Shown: positions 50,817 to 62,673, counted from the first letter of the stretch. The stretch: 64,000 bases of DNA from Candidatus Binatia bacterium (GCA_963666515.2 OY762897.2:96001-160000), one strand, 5' to 3'. Translations and numbers: made by a program. The notes: a model not told the origin generated them from the letters alone.

Positions 50817-53800
50817 TCAGTTGATGCGACGCGAAATCCGGTCGCGGAGGTCGGGCGGGGAAGACGCAGTGAGATAACGCCTGCCGTCGGAGGTGAGGCT
50901 CCGTCCGCCTGGGCCGACGCGGATCAGGTTTAGACGGGTCAGATACTCCGACACGATCACGAAGTCCGCCCTGTTCGAGATTCCCAGTGCCCGGCGAATT
51001 TCTTCCTCCGCCGAAGCGCCCCGTGTTCTCAGCAGCTTGAGATATTCGACATGTTCCGAGGTAAGGCCGTTGCCGTCGATGCCTTGTGTATCAAACCACC
51101 GCGCCACGGCGGTTACGTTCATCAGTTCCGCCACTTCCTCCCTGGTAGGCACGCGTCCCAGCCTGTGCTCCGCCGTGCCGTAGAAGCTCGCTACCAGTGG
51201 CTCAAGGATGTTGACGCTTGGTCGCGGACTGCATTGCATGCGCGCCGCAATTTCAATGCAGGTCTCTCGACTCAGGCCGGCTTGCCCGAGCTTCTCCACG
51301 GAGCGGAGCCAGACGATCCCGGCCATCTCCTCAAGCGTGTAGGACCGCAGGATCGTCTTGTCCGGTCGGCTCTGAAACGCTTCCGATAGCCTGCCAGGAT
51401 CCGTTGTTGCCAGAAGAAAGACGACGTCTTCGAAACTATAGACCACGTTGCCGATCGTGGTGTCGCGCCGCTCGTCCAAGGCGCTGAGCAGCACCGTGGA
51501 AACCGGGCTTGCCACCGCATGCACCTCGTCGATGAAGATCAGGCAGGGATCGACGGTAACGGCGTCCGACGCGTCCGCCGGCAGTTTGCCAGCCTCCACC
51601 AAGCGCTCGACGATCATTTCCGGTCGGCGAAGATCGGCGCCGTTGAATGTAATCGGTTCCAACTGAAGCAATCGTTCGGCGATCCGGCGAGCGAGCGTCG
51701 TCTTGCCGACCCCGGCGGGGCCAACGAACAGCTTGTCGAGGAACCGCTCACCCCAACCCTTGGCCTTGCGCGCCTGATTGTCCAGTTCCTGGGCGATCTC
51801 GTGCTGGCCAACCATTCCCAGCGCATTCACCTGCGGCGGCCAGACCCGTCCCTCTCCCGACCCTTCTTCTGCTTCACCCGCTCGGTCGAACGGCGTTGAC
51901 GTCACCGACGCGTCCGTCCCATCCGGACGGTCGATCCCGGTCGCCGCATCGGCGACGGGCGACGACGGTTCATCCCCGGCCACTACAGTCGTTGTTCTCT
52001 CGGTTCTGCCGCTATTTCCCGATCCCGACGCCGCTCCGGAAGCACCGTCGGTCGGCGACGTCACCTCTTTCGCCGGAGCCGCTACGGGATCGCCGCTCGA
52101 ACGCTGCGCACCCCTGTCTTCTCCATCCGAAGCCTCTCCATCCGCACCGTCGTCTTCCGGCGGAGCCTTCGTCACGAAATCACTGCCAAACAGTTCCTCG
52201 GCTGCGCTTTCCGTGATTGTCCTGACCGTGATCGGGATCTGTTTCCCCTGGAGCGGCTTCACCCGGGCCGTTTCCGTCGACCGGAGCTTCACGACAACGA
52301 TCTCGCCATCGACCCGCAGGGCCGGCGGTTCAGCACTGTCGCCGAACAGGTCCTTGAGCAGCGGCCCCCAAATCTTGCGTTGCGCAACGTCGTCCTCATC
52401 TGCACCCCAGCGGTTCGATGCCGCCCTGACCAGGACCTCTTTCAGCATCTCCGACCGCGGTGCCGCAAACGGTCCGGCGCCACTGACCGCGCTCGACAAC
52501 ACCGCCGCCGTCTGCTCGATCTGATCGGCCGCATGACCGATCAGCTTGGCCTCGTCGGACAACGCCGCTCCTCCCGTCGTCTTGACTTCGATACAGGTCA
52601 ACCGGAACGACCCGTCTCCCGCTCGGCGAACCGCGATCAGGTCGCAGCGCTTGCCGCCACCCGCCGGTCCCAGCTTCAGCCAGAGGCGCGCGATCTTGTC
52701 GTCCACCGAAGCCACCAGCGCATCCGGATCCTCGCTTCGCACCTGGCGCGCGGCGAGCAACATACCGACGAACCCAAGCACCGACGCATTGTCGGGCAGT
52801 CCGGACCGTTTCTTGATCATGTCGAGCAGTCCTGCACCGACCAGGTTCACGCCCTGCCGCAGGACTTGGCCCAGGCTCTCGTTCGTGATGGTCAAATTGC
52901 AGTTGCTGAACGCGGTACGCATCAGGGTCGCCAACCGACCATAGTCCGCCGCGCTCAGCAGCACCTGGCGATGCCCTTCCTTGTGCCGCAGAAGCCGGAT
53001 CGACTTCATGCCGTTCTCCGGCGGCAAGGCGCGATCCGCGAGCAATACCCAGTACGCCGGCGGTCGATCTTCGAGCAGCAGGCGGTCGATCGTCGAGCGC
53101 AGCCGATCGGCGTCCGCGGAAGCAATCATCGTGCTGTCGCGCTGCTCCTGCTCGAATTCGTGAATCATCATCACGAAATCGGAAAAGGGCGGTTCACCCG
53201 GGTGCGGGCTCAGACTGATATCGCCCAGCATACGATCCACGACGATCTCGTTGCGCACGCAGAACGGACTCATCGGCAGCAGGCTCTCGACACGTCGACG
53301 CCGGACCGAAATCGCGGATTCATCGAAGATCGCGATCAGGTGCTGAGGTCGTTTCGACAGATCCTCTCGTACCAGCCGATCGAGGTTCTCATGGCTATCG
53401 CGTGCGACGCGGATATCGAGCCTCCCGGCAGAAACCTTCTCGTAGACCAAGTCCTGTGCCCTGCCTTCGAGGGTCGATGCCGCGATCAGCCGGTCTCTGT
53501 GCCCCGCCGTAGCGACGATCGTCACATCGAGCGCCGCAAGGCGCCGCGGCGTGTTCCGCCGCTCGTTCAGGAACTTTGTCAGCCGCTCCAGTAGCCGCGC
53601 CGCTTCCGGCGGGTTGACGAGCGTCAACCGAAGCGGCCGCGGATGGTTGGGGTAGAGCATCACAAAGTGATCGAGCGCCAGGACCAGCGTCTCCATGCCG
53701 TCGGCGCTACTGATCGCGTTATGCAGGTTCTCGAACGTTGCGAGACCGCAAATGGTGTTTGCGACGGGCAGCAGTTGATTGAGTCCCCGGCCTTCCGGTG

Positions 53801-60616: not shown

Positions 60617-62673
60617 CCGTTCGAGTCTCCCACCACTGGCTCTTCAGCCTCGCCCAGCGGTACAAAAACGTCCCGCGGCAAGGCGGCCATGCTGGACTGA
60701 TGACGAAGCCGACTGGCAAGCCAACGCCGGCGCCAGAAGGCCGCGATACGTTCCGTGGCGTCCTCGTATCCGTCCGGTGCCGCGACATAGCCTGGCAACT
60801 CCGTTACGCGCTCCTGCAACCAATCCCGCGCCTTCGGAAAGAGCGGAGCGCCGTAGATCAGGCGGTGATGTCGATGCTGGATCAGCTTGTCGGGATCGAA
60901 TCCCAGCTTGCGAAGACCCATCTTCACCTTGCGTAGCTTCGGACTCGTCCCTTCCCCGAAGACGCTGTTCACCTCCTTGAAATCGCGTTCGTAAGCGAGA
61001 TAGGCATCGATCGCCCTACTTGTATCCGGCGAGAATTGAATCGTCCCGAAGCCCGAAGTCTGACCGATCGCGTTGTAAGGGATGCTTTCCTGCTCCGGGG
61101 CGATCGTGCCCGCAGGCAACTGCAGCCGATTGTATTGACTGGAGCCGTGCACGTAGAGGCTGGTCGTGCCAAGATAAACAAGTGTGCTGTCGCGTATGAC
61201 GCGACGGTTTTTCATCTGCGACGAGATGATAGACGGACTTGCATATCGGCGTCGGTAGTCGGCGCTGACCTGCGGGCTAAGCATCAGCAGAGCGACCAGC
61301 TTACCACCAAGAATTCGATTGTACGGCGCGATCGCACCGCATGTCGTGATTTCAAGCAGATTGGCGCCGGCCCGTCGCCCCTTAAGCGCCTCCAGCACGA
61401 TATTGATGGCGCTTCCAACCTTGTCTTTCCCAAGCGCTGTACACGCGAGGTCAGGGTCGGTGAGTTCCTCCCGGTGCTGTGCGATGACGAGCCGGGCCGA
61501 GAGCAGGCGTGACAGTGCCAGGGCTCGCTTCTTGGCCACGAGCTGCTTGCGGGCGGCATGCATGCGCGCGTCGACGGACGCCTTGGCCTCCAGTTTAAGG
61601 ATGTCGTCATCGACCGGAGGAGCTGTTGCATCGTTCCAGAGATCGGCCTCGAATTGATCCTGCGTAGAACCGGCGACCTCCCTGAGCAGAGTTTCCCGCA
61701 ACTTCGAGAATTCTTGGCTGCGCAGTGCGAGCCGACGAACCACCGCATCGTCGGGAGATTCCACTTCTTCCGCAGTTACGAGATTGGTCCAATCGATTTC
61801 CGCGAGCGACGTCTCGAGTTGGTGTTCCAGCCACCGAACTTCCTCTCTCAGCGCCGCCTTGCCGTTGGCTGCGGCCCCGATGAACCGTTCGACGATAGCT
61901 GCGAGGTGCCATCCGATGTATCGCTCGCGCTTCTCGCCCATTTCGAGAGGACAATTGTTCAGCGCGGCGATACCGATGACTGGATGCGCCCGATGCGCGG
62001 CGTCTCTCACAAGGTAAAGGAGCTGCCGTCCCGGGGTCGACACTTGCGGTATCGACCAAGTGTATCGGAAATAACGCCAAATCTCGCGGAGCTGCCGTCC
62101 GGTCGTCGGATCCACACTCCCGTCCGCTTCCTGAAGATACGGCTTGATGGCGTCGCCCAGAGCCGCCACCTTTTCATCGCCTTCAAGGTCGCGTGCAGGC
62201 GCGAGCCTTGCTGCCAGCTCCGCTCCGTCCGCCGTGAGCAGTCGCACACTACGCCGACCTGAACGGTCTTCTCTTTCCATCCTGGCAATAAAGTCCAAAA
62301 CGGCAGGGTGCCGTTTCTGCTCATCGACAATGGGCTGCAACTCACCGCGTAACATCTTCTTGCTGGCTATAATCTCCGATGTTGGCCGTCCACCGACCCG
62401 TTCCTTGCGATTCTCCAGAGCGAATCCGTAGCCTTGTTCGGCGATACGCCAGCGCAGCCGCGCGAGATCGGACAGAACCCTGATACACGCTTCATAGGCC
62501 AACACGTTTTCTTCGCTGCACTTTGCTGATTGGCACCAATTTATCTCTTCCTCCAATGCACCACTAATGTCGTTCGCGTTGCGCGCACGCTGGGCACACG
62601 CGAGTCTCATTGCAAACGCATGAAACCGCTCAGCGGATTCTCCATCCAGGGGTGGAAATATCGGTACGATCAT
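60613..62673 (-). CDS. DUF4338 / Druantia DruA-like protein, 686 aa
   Basis: PGRQLLYLVRD..PVIGIAAL..RERYIGW, CGAIAPYNRILGGKLVALL, TTSLY..GSSQYNRL, GQTSGFG. Confidence 0.82.
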   Translation of the reverse strand: MIVPIFPPLDGESAERFHAFAMRLACAQRARNANDISGALEEEINWCQSAKCSEENVLAYEACIRVLSDLARLRWRIAEQGYGFALENRKERVGGRPTSEIIASKKMLRGELQPIVDEQKRHPAVLDFIARMEREDRSGRRSVRLLTADGAELAARLAPARDLEGDEKVAALGDAIKPYLQEADGSVDPTTGRQLREIWRYFRYTWSIPQVSTPGRQLLYLVRDAAHRAHPVIGIAALNNCPLEMGEKRERYIGWHLAAIVERFIGAAANGKAALREEVRWLEHQLETSLAEIDWTNLVTAEEVESPDDAVVRRLALRSQEFSKLRETLLREVAGSTQDQFEADLWNDATAPPVDDDILKLEAKASVDARMHAARKQLVAKKRALALSRLLSARLVIAQHREELTDPDLACTALGKDKVGSAINIVLEALKGRRAGANLLEITTCGAIAPYNRILGGKLVALLMLSPQVSADYRRRYASPSIISSQMKNRRVIRDSTLVYLGTTSLYVHGSSQYNRLQLPAGTIAPEQESIPYNAIGQTSGFGTIQFSPDTSRAIDAYLAYERDFKEVNSVFGEGTSPKLRKVKMGLRKLGFDPDKLIQHRHHRLIYGAPLFPKARDWLQERVTELPGYVAAPDGYEDATERIAAFWRRRWLASRLRHQSSMAALPRDVFVPLGEAEEPVVGDSNG

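Follow-up and report, generated by a model that had tools for sequence, protein, structure and literature searches.

A predicted four-gene restriction cassette that joins a long-form DruA to a DndFGH-like machine with a RuvB-like motor

What is a DruA protein doing at the head of an operon in which the DruE helicase of Druantia type I is missing and the genes that follow resemble the restriction machine of a phosphorothioate system? The question is raised by a 64,000-nucleotide (nt) stretch of DNA from Candidatus Binatia bacterium (GCA_963666515.2 OY762897.2:96001-160000), here called the window, whose own positions serve as coordinates throughout. On its minus strand, at 50817-62673, the open reading frame (ORF) listing gives four co-oriented, tightly packed genes, here A, B, C and D, which an earlier note on this DNA had taken for an undescribed defence operon. 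To our knowledge, machines of the FGH type (F, G and H subunits) have been described in one setting, as the restricting half of phosphorothioate systems, and their pump has in every case been HerA/FtsK. On the comparisons set out below, the locus is probably a horizontally moved, self-contained four-gene restriction cassette of the FGH kind that is coupled to DruA instead of to a phosphorothioation module.

An FGH-type machine led by DruA

The coordinates and the reading of the junctions agree with the earlier note's four tightly coupled genes and with the sizes it gave them. Two minus-strand ORFs have the limits of A and B (Table 1); a third, at 57679-59127, has an internal ATG at 59013 that yields a C of 444 amino acids (aa), and two more lie at 57453-57701 (82 aa) and 50817-55364 (1515 aa). 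By ORF coordinates A and B overlap by 4 nt (60613-60616) and B and C by 8 nt (59006-59013), the latter overlap being present in identical form in orthologues, and the C/D junction, read directly in the sequence, is stop-G-ATG (57675-57681).

Gene A is a full-length, long-form DruA. The PADLOC DruA model PDLC00001 matches it at 2.8e-126 over residues 42-666 (the 2023 PADLOC models were scanned against the proteins, the PADLOC and DefenseFinder programs as such not being part of the analysis), and the Pfam DruA profile matches residues 445-620 at 1.9e-29 and has a second stretch (profile positions 59-119) in the N-terminal third, in keeping with the DUF4338/DruA-like label that the gene had been given earlier. 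The DruA/GNAT-like domain is in two parts, with some 190 aa inserted between them and an N-terminal extension of about 190 aa ahead of the first, and a profile of the short-form DruA aligns with the A family over A residues 187-659 (hhalign 98.7%, E-value (E) 2.9e-16).

Gene B can be placed, from profile and motif matches, as a P-loop protein of the DndF/SspF type that keeps the odd Walker B (Asn) of that family. Its N-terminus matches the PADLOC models of SspF (3.9e-13) and DndF (5.9e-4), a profile of B matches genuine SspF at 7.7e-10, and the C-terminal part of DndF is matched at 7.1e-6 by one orthologue alone, that of locus L015; F subunits are described as having a long helical lid and, at the C-terminus, an alpha+beta domain. 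A Walker A with a GxxGxGKT loop (60392-60415), an Asn-Glu at the Walker-B position (60233-60244) and an Asp that ends strand 2 (60326-60340) are together what has been described as the DndF signature (PMC10853773, in the text available), and both Asn127-Glu128 and Asp95 are near-invariant in the alignment of B and its relatives (A3). Searched against PDB sequences, the profiles of B, C and A gave nothing meaningful.

Gene C matches no family in Pfam, PADLOC or NCBIfam, and it is from its predicted fold and its C-terminus that we take it to be a DNA-binding subunit of the DndG/SspG type. The fold search that the earlier note had recommended was run on an AlphaFold2 (AF2) model (predicted local distance difference test 90.9, predicted template modelling score 0.92), and its top Foldseek match in the PDB is 7exx, "structure of DndG" (E 0.02, probability 0.93, template modelling (TM) score 0.31). 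The last winged helix-turn-helix (wHTH) of C, 107 C-terminal columns, aligns with the G family (hhalign 76%, E 2.2e-5), and the L015 orthologue matches SspG at 9.6e-5.

Gene D, which is split in this genome by an insertion sequence (IS), appears to be a giant subunit of the DndH/SspH type with a conserved PD-(D/E)xK nuclease. Its family aligns with the H family over 833 columns, from D residue 637 onward (hhalign 99.8%, E 2.6e-29), the H proteins used being ones that match both the DndH and the SspH models, and phmmer with D finds 259 relatives at E<=1e-3. The nuclease motif (Asp 908 and Glu-x-Lys 926-928 of the main piece, D_main) aligns with the nuclease motif of the H family, and 46 family members keep its D, E and K without exception. 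Taken with the SspF and DndF model matches of B and the DndG fold and G-family alignment of C, this places the trio where the earlier note had put it, among relatives of DndFGH.

Where D departs from its relatives is in its motor. Pfam recognises AAA (5.5e-17), RuvB_N (2.6e-7) and RuvB_C (3e-4), the best PDB sequence matches are RuvB (3pfi, 6.6e-9), and the NCBIfam RuvB model matches at 7.5e-19; since its 67.8 bits are far below the RuvB cut-off of 282 (a second model gives 56.5 against 299), we call the motor RuvB-like, not RuvB, as opposed to the HerA/FtsK type, which is how the earlier note had also seen it. No variation is seen among 13 sequences in its Walker A (51699-51722), its Walker B (51519-51533), its sensor 1 or two of its arginines. 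With RuvB, the Holliday-junction branch-migration motor, it shares an AAA+ fold followed by a winged helix, and both would be expected to act as ring-forming pumps of double-stranded DNA; it differs in being only about 28% identical to real RuvB, below the equivalog cut-off, in being fused behind a nuclease and in implying no RuvA partner. A recent copying of the motor from a host ruvB gene was considered and rejected at that level of identity to real RuvB genes.

Relatives with a similar body carry HerA/FtsK domains, and it is on these grounds that the motor is read as a swap, in which the HerA/FtsK pump of D has been replaced by a RuvB-like AAA+ domain and winged helix with conserved catalytic motifs. 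The homologue at locus L016, whose body is 36% identical (D_main 4-1059), has a HerA/FtsK domain of the DndH type at its end (2.4e-68). In a census of the best 150 of the 259 relatives, the 52 full-length proteins comprised 8 with an AAA+ motor and 44 with a HerA/FtsK-type motor, 13 of the latter like that of L016 and 31 of other HerA/FtsK kinds (matching the mad8 model in 31/31 cases, SspH in 27/31 and DndH in 3/31). A FastTree tree built on the 1130 N-terminal columns groups the 10 AAA+ rows, without exception, with 4 HerA/FtsK rows in a single starred clade (14 rows), which is nested among FtsK types. Repeated "capture" of HerA/FtsK domains by DndH has been described by Rakesh, Aravind and Krishnan (2024; PMC10853773), in whose main text, as far as it was available, RuvB does not appear, and our literature search found nothing that treats DndH and RuvB together.

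How, then, does the cassette stand to the systems already described? With DndFGH (DptFGH) it shares F, G and H subunits of like size and order, namely a P-loop protein with a Walker-B Asn, a mid-sized protein (about 450 aa) that appears to end in a wHTH, and a giant (about 1600 aa) in which, as in D, a PD-(D/E)xK nuclease is followed by a ring motor. It differs in that its genome lacks dndC and dndD, in that the motor of D is AAA+ and not HerA/FtsK, in that the first 630 or so residues of D escape the DndH models, and in that the operon begins with DruA as a gene of its own, present in every case. SspFGH is close in other respects: the best defence-model matches of B are to SspF, the L015 C matches SspG, and SspH-type FtsK is found in 27 of the 31 remote D relatives; yet the likeness to SspH is limited to a motor that D lacks here, the SspF, SspG and SspH models miss C and the body of D, and no ssp-type partner was seen adjoining the cassette.

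Druantia type I (DruABCDE) has DruA in common with the cassette. In the canonical example, on Pseudomonas putida pKF715A, a short-form DruA of 409 aa is followed by DruB, DruC, DruD and DruE; here A is the long form (686 aa, with extension and insert), DruB, DruC, DruD and DruE are wanting, and the effector is an FGH-type nuclease-motor, not a DruE helicase. The PADLOC models of DruB, DruC and DruD find no match to B, C or D at E<=0.01, and the idea that these three might be remote versions of those proteins finds support in none of the models. DruE (DUF1998/MZB) is absent from the locus, the single MZB/DUF1998 ORF of the genome lying about 270 kb away, and dndC (TIGR03183) and dndD (TIGR03185) have no match in a genome that is 98% complete, sspB and sspC being outside that search; the claim of the earlier note that the operon comes with neither DruE nor a dnd modification gene is borne out to this extent. 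What PADLOC calls "Druantia type IV" (DruE, DruF and DruL) was also compared and is unrelated to the cassette.

"Undescribed" was nevertheless too strong a word for the operon, since a fusion of DUF4338 to DndF is already in print: some DndF proteins are described there as carrying DUF4338, a GNAT domain, as an N-terminal fusion (PMC10853773, available in part). A separate four-gene cassette, an AAA+ motor swap and a likeness of DruA to Mom were not found in print, and the supplements of that paper, which list DndF fusions and DndH variants, may hold members; a preprint on YprA (10.1101/2025.09.15.676423) has no DruA, DUF4338, DndF or RuvB. What seems new here is the separate DruA-FGH cassette of four genes and the motor swap, and what was already known is the link between DUF4338 and DndF.

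Table 1. Features of the DruA-FGH locus in the window
Feature	Position	Strand	Evidence
Gene A, long-form DruA (DUF4338), 686 aa	60613..62673	-	PADLOC, Pfam, hhalign
Gene B, DndF/SspF-like P-loop protein, 536 aa	59006..60616	-	PADLOC models, B profile, alignment
Gene C, DndG/SspG-like putative DNA-binding subunit, 444 aa	57679..59013	-	AF2 and Foldseek, hhalign
Gene D, N-terminal piece, about 71 codons, ends at the IS	57463..57677	-	ATG at 57677 after the C stop
IS1634-family insertion sequence, 2070 base pairs (bp)	55393..57462	-	NCBIfam, ends read
Gene D, main piece: DndH/SspH-like body, low-complexity linker, then motor (1515-aa ORF from 55364)	50817..55386	-	hhalign
PD-(D/E)xK nuclease motif of D	52581..52646	-	46-member alignment, H-family alignment
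RuvB-like AAA+ ATPase and C-terminal winged helix of D (D_main 1183-1500)	50865..51818	-	Pfam, NCBIfam, PDB

Conservation and spread of the cassette

The C profile retrieved 15 loci, which belong to metagenome-assembled genomes (MAGs) of Alphaproteobacteria, Pseudomonadales, Competibacteraceae and Vicinamibacterales. As far as their contigs reach, A is present in 12/12, B in 13/13, C in 15/15 and D in 15/15, and because the order is kept in all 15 the A-B-C-D arrangement is not a matter of chance. The order extends to plasmids, including one of Hymenobacter and a haloarchaeal plasmid on which DruA (705 aa), a 519-aa protein, a 498-aa protein and an "FtsK" protein of 1522 aa follow one another and match A to D at 9.5e-84, 3.1e-44, 4.6e-10 and 2.1e-39, so that the synteny check proposed in the earlier note turned out in favour of a four-gene unit. 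An A homologue is present on each of the seven plasmid records that carry a B homologue, and in six of them the two are shown to be adjacent or fused; in the seventh (Halobaculum) both are on the same record. Outright A-B fusions occur at L015 (1239 aa) and in Hymenobacter canadensis (a coding sequence of 1052 aa).

The flanks, by contrast with this core, vary. Neither flank gene of the window recurs in the related loci, and flanks are not common between loci: tallies of 72 flank ORFs at 13 loci list transposases, resolvases, patatin and two-transmembrane (2TM) effectors, IetA, and type II methylase and nuclease models, a context of mobility and defence, next to housekeeping genes. Between about 50000 and about 65000 in window coordinates, some 15 kb, GC content drops to 0.58-0.65 from the 0.66-0.70 around it and then recovers, a low-GC island from which we read a foreign origin of the cassette.

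Two further observations concern its neighbourhoods and its travels. At three Sphingomonas-/Acetobacteraceae-type loci (L011:49-4366, L012:1849-6154 and L013:1829-6104) a common trio of divergent ORFs, of about 775-783, 382-384 and 268-300 aa, stands upstream beside A, and three flank ORFs in the tallies match HATPase_c_3. Cassette proteins compared between L007 and L009 and L002-L006 gave identities of about 86-92% to Vicinamibacterales MAGs and of 70-85% to Alphaproteobacteria/Pseudomonadales MAGs, values that point to recent horizontal transfer across phyla.

A mobile, variably flanked locus of this sort could also be something other than immunity, namely a DNA-handling module of a mobile element, active in transfer, segregation or maintenance and built from a pump, a nuclease and a transposase-linked DruA domain. 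The DruA domain occurs in 73 of the 401 genomes of our phylum sample, often in multiple copies; in two of them (L034-L036, genome G305; L037-L038, genome G384) DruA ORFs sit inside repeats of 2.3-2.5 kb that are 99.7-99.9% identical, and protein-atlas clusters, as a lead only, show the domain fused to IS701, IS4/Tn5 and ISAs1 DDE transposases. FtsK/HerA and RuvB motors serve mobile elements as well, and the cassette itself is found on plasmids and in a low-GC island. However, no integrase, relaxase or replication gene accompanies the cassette while its flanks change from locus to locus, and viral contigs, scanned with the profile of C, gave 73 pattern matches and 0 confirmed relatives. B, C and D are, moreover, homologous to modules, DndFGH and SspFGH, that have been tested experimentally and restrict phage (PMC8092258, available in part), and the cassette is struck repeatedly by insertion sequences, as dispensable and costly cargo would be. 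On balance we regard a mobile-element module as very improbable, and a restriction cassette of the FGH kind as the better account.

A number of observations nonetheless weigh against that account, and they are best considered together. The transposase fusions and multi-copy repeats mean that DruA may not be a defence-specific enzyme at all. For C, the fold match to DndG is weak at the E and TM values given above, no PDB structure is matched at E<=0.001, and the alignment with the G family covers only the C-terminal quarter; G subunits are described as proteins of about 450-500 aa with three winged-helix domains. For D, the first 630 or so residues match nothing known, part of the score against the H family comes from FtsK columns contributed by other rows of the alignment, the PADLOC DndH and SspH models reach relatives of D only on the motor, and Foldseek with a 1150-residue model of D returned nothing at E<=0.001, only weak rows of methyltransferase fold. 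The parts described for H subunits are an inactive SNF2-type domain at the N-terminus, an HTH, beta-sandwiches, a TRD and an inactive methylase. The tree was made with FastTree only, has long branches and requires at least four motor changes, of which the starred branches force one. The cassette is also rare in its own phylum, there being no second DruA-F pair among the 401 genomes of the sample. Finally, the functions that we assign to it (defence, complex formation, translocation and a role for DruA) are ones that we infer from sequence.

One other arrangement of long-form DruA came to light along the way. On a Roseivivax plasmid (L018, 7905-11659) the gene of a 589-aa "ATP-binding protein" overlaps the start of a long-form DruA by 4 nt; the pair comes without F, G or H genes, and DruA may here have yet another, third type of partner.

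The Binatia copy: a broken D and its neighbours

The copy in the window is itself predicted to be dead or crippled, because D is interrupted, about 71 codons from its start, by an element of the IS1634 family. Its ends are imperfect terminal inverted repeats, the target duplication is of 6 bp (55387-55392 and 57463-57468), and its transposase gene (55502-57304, 600 aa) matches the NCBIfam model transpos_IS1634 at 2e-87, with 294 bits against a cut-off of 100. The genome holds four matches to the element, one of full length at 93% identity. With the element excised, 215 + 4567 nt join to give 1594 codons, as the earlier note had reconstructed for an IS-broken gene and within the range of intact orthologues (1575-1602 aa), in which the N-terminal piece runs straight on, in the same frame, into the remainder of D. 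The insertion is not an artefact of assembly, since contigs of four public runs, all of one study and possibly including the source sample, span both junctions; an empty-site junction is not listed among those contigs, which cannot in any case show absence.

Elsewhere in the genome, three copies or fragments of the element, 91-94% identical, lie at G000:C1:3121572-3123639, 1458844-1460729 and 1623462-1624524. Breakage of D is not peculiar to this genome: D is also IS-broken at L008 and L009, so that, with the window copy, 3 of the 14 AAA+-type copies have a broken D. At L008, D carries an IS630-like insertion and A is cut short by an IS1634-like one (L008:15743-16927 and 5032-6654), at L009:15540-19318 genes of the IS66 and IS110 families lie inside D, and in the cassette of the Hymenobacter plasmid an IS3 element separates the G-like gene from the H-like pieces (L061:11222-12390). 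Repeated hits of this kind hint at a fitness cost, which is typical of immunity that damages its own host.

As to the immediate surroundings, the earlier note had bounded the operon by a broken higBA on one side and a divergent AAA_14/DUF4143 gene on the other. The second is there, as an ATPase gene of 407 aa upstream (window 63123-64346, plus strand); for the first, an HTH_3 antitoxin-like gene was found 12 bp downstream of D, and the check reached that half only. An ORF with a NYN domain, at about 64513-65157 (L033:2513-3157), shares the low-GC island with the cassette and the AAA_14/DUF4143 gene, and neither it nor that gene accompanies the cassette in other genomes. Just beyond the cassette on the other side is a GNAT acetyltransferase (window 49642-50355, plus strand; Pfam Acetyltransf_1, 2.2e-12), which may resemble aminoglycoside 3-N-acetyltransferases. 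The upstream neighbours are metabolic genes, and the next 20 kb hold no tRNA gene.

What DruA may contribute

If the cassette restricts foreign DNA, it is plausible to picture B, C and D as a complex in which C would bind DNA, B would bind nucleotide and gate activity, and D would move along double-stranded DNA by its ring-forming AAA+ motor and nick or cut what is foreign. The fusions of A to B in two lineages suggest that A works physically with B. The harder question is what A does there, and the answer that we favour, tentatively, is that it would write a mark on host DNA by which that DNA is spared.

Such a self-marking role is suggested by a remote likeness of DruA to phage Mu Mom and its family, enzymes of GNAT fold that modify adenine in DNA. 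When 17 diverse DruA domains are combined into a profile, it aligns over 170 columns with 8 proteins of the Mom family (hhalign 89.5%, E 2e-6) and spans Mom columns 8-200 of 241, nearly the whole domain, against hhalign values of 0.1-0.6% in six control comparisons with unrelated profiles. Mom is a GNAT that glycylates N6 of deoxyadenosine in double-stranded DNA with the help of Gly-tRNA (PMC13219725), and Druantia type I has been reported to leave marks resembling N6-methyladenine (m6A) on DNA despite having no methylase domain (preprint 10.1101/2024.04.14.589459), both sources having been available in part. A wider and rather doubtful version of the idea makes DruA in general a host-encoded, Mom-like GNAT that would put a non-methyl adduct on adenine of its own DNA, as a self signal for the DruBCDE and FGH engines alike, perhaps drawing on charged tRNA as Mom does.

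There is a good deal on the other side of the ledger. The A family itself gives only 0.2% against Mom in hhalign, an alignment, A7, compared with a single Mom sequence gives nothing, and a Mom hidden Markov model (HMM) has no match in this genome; Mom differs, too, in being a small phage anti-restriction enzyme without a direct HMM match to DruA, and the alignment could reflect nothing more than a shared GNAT fold. The published DUF4338 fusion has been read as a co-effector that acts on protein and not as a DNA modifier (PMC10853773, in part), and we found no literature that joins Druantia with Mom-like or carbamoylmethyl modification.

A role as co-effector or sensor comes second for A, and is itself doubtful. 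In its full form this alternative keeps the same FGH machine, lets it tell self from foreign by another cue, and has DruA act as a GNAT once the main restriction is blocked, its substrate for acylation being a protein, a charged tRNA or a phage molecule. DUF4338 stands among variable N-terminal fusions of DndF (HEPN, NERD, kinase) that have been read as co-effectors, and DndFGH has been argued to be a standalone system (both PMC10853773, as far as available); the lack of a direct match between the A family and Mom is in line with this, as is the fusion of A, in two lineages, to B, presumably the sensor subunit. Yet A is not variable: it accompanies B in all 12 testable loci and in all seven plasmid records, and its family shows a mean column identity of 73%. 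Such constant company and strong conservation are what one would expect of a core component more than of an optional extra. The DruA domain, moreover, aligns with almost the entire Mom domain, and DruA is the one part that the cassette has in common with Druantia type I, in which new DNA marks have been reported (10.1101/2024.04.14.589459). For these reasons we consider the co-effector account as a whole unlikely, and keep self-marking of host DNA as the first choice for A.

Should DruA indeed mark host DNA, the cassette would represent a new class of modification-restriction system, and the m6A-like signals of the methylase-free Druantia type I would be accounted for. Independently of that, the FGH chassis appears to accept a motor of a different ATPase class, AAA+ and RuvB-like, which would be nature's own test of the pump's contribution, and in bacteria and archaea alike it appears to be stably joined to DruA. 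Of the parts of Druantia type I, DruA is the least well understood; as the steady companion of a second and unrelated effector, and a possible relative of Mom, it becomes a protein whose role may be directly testable.

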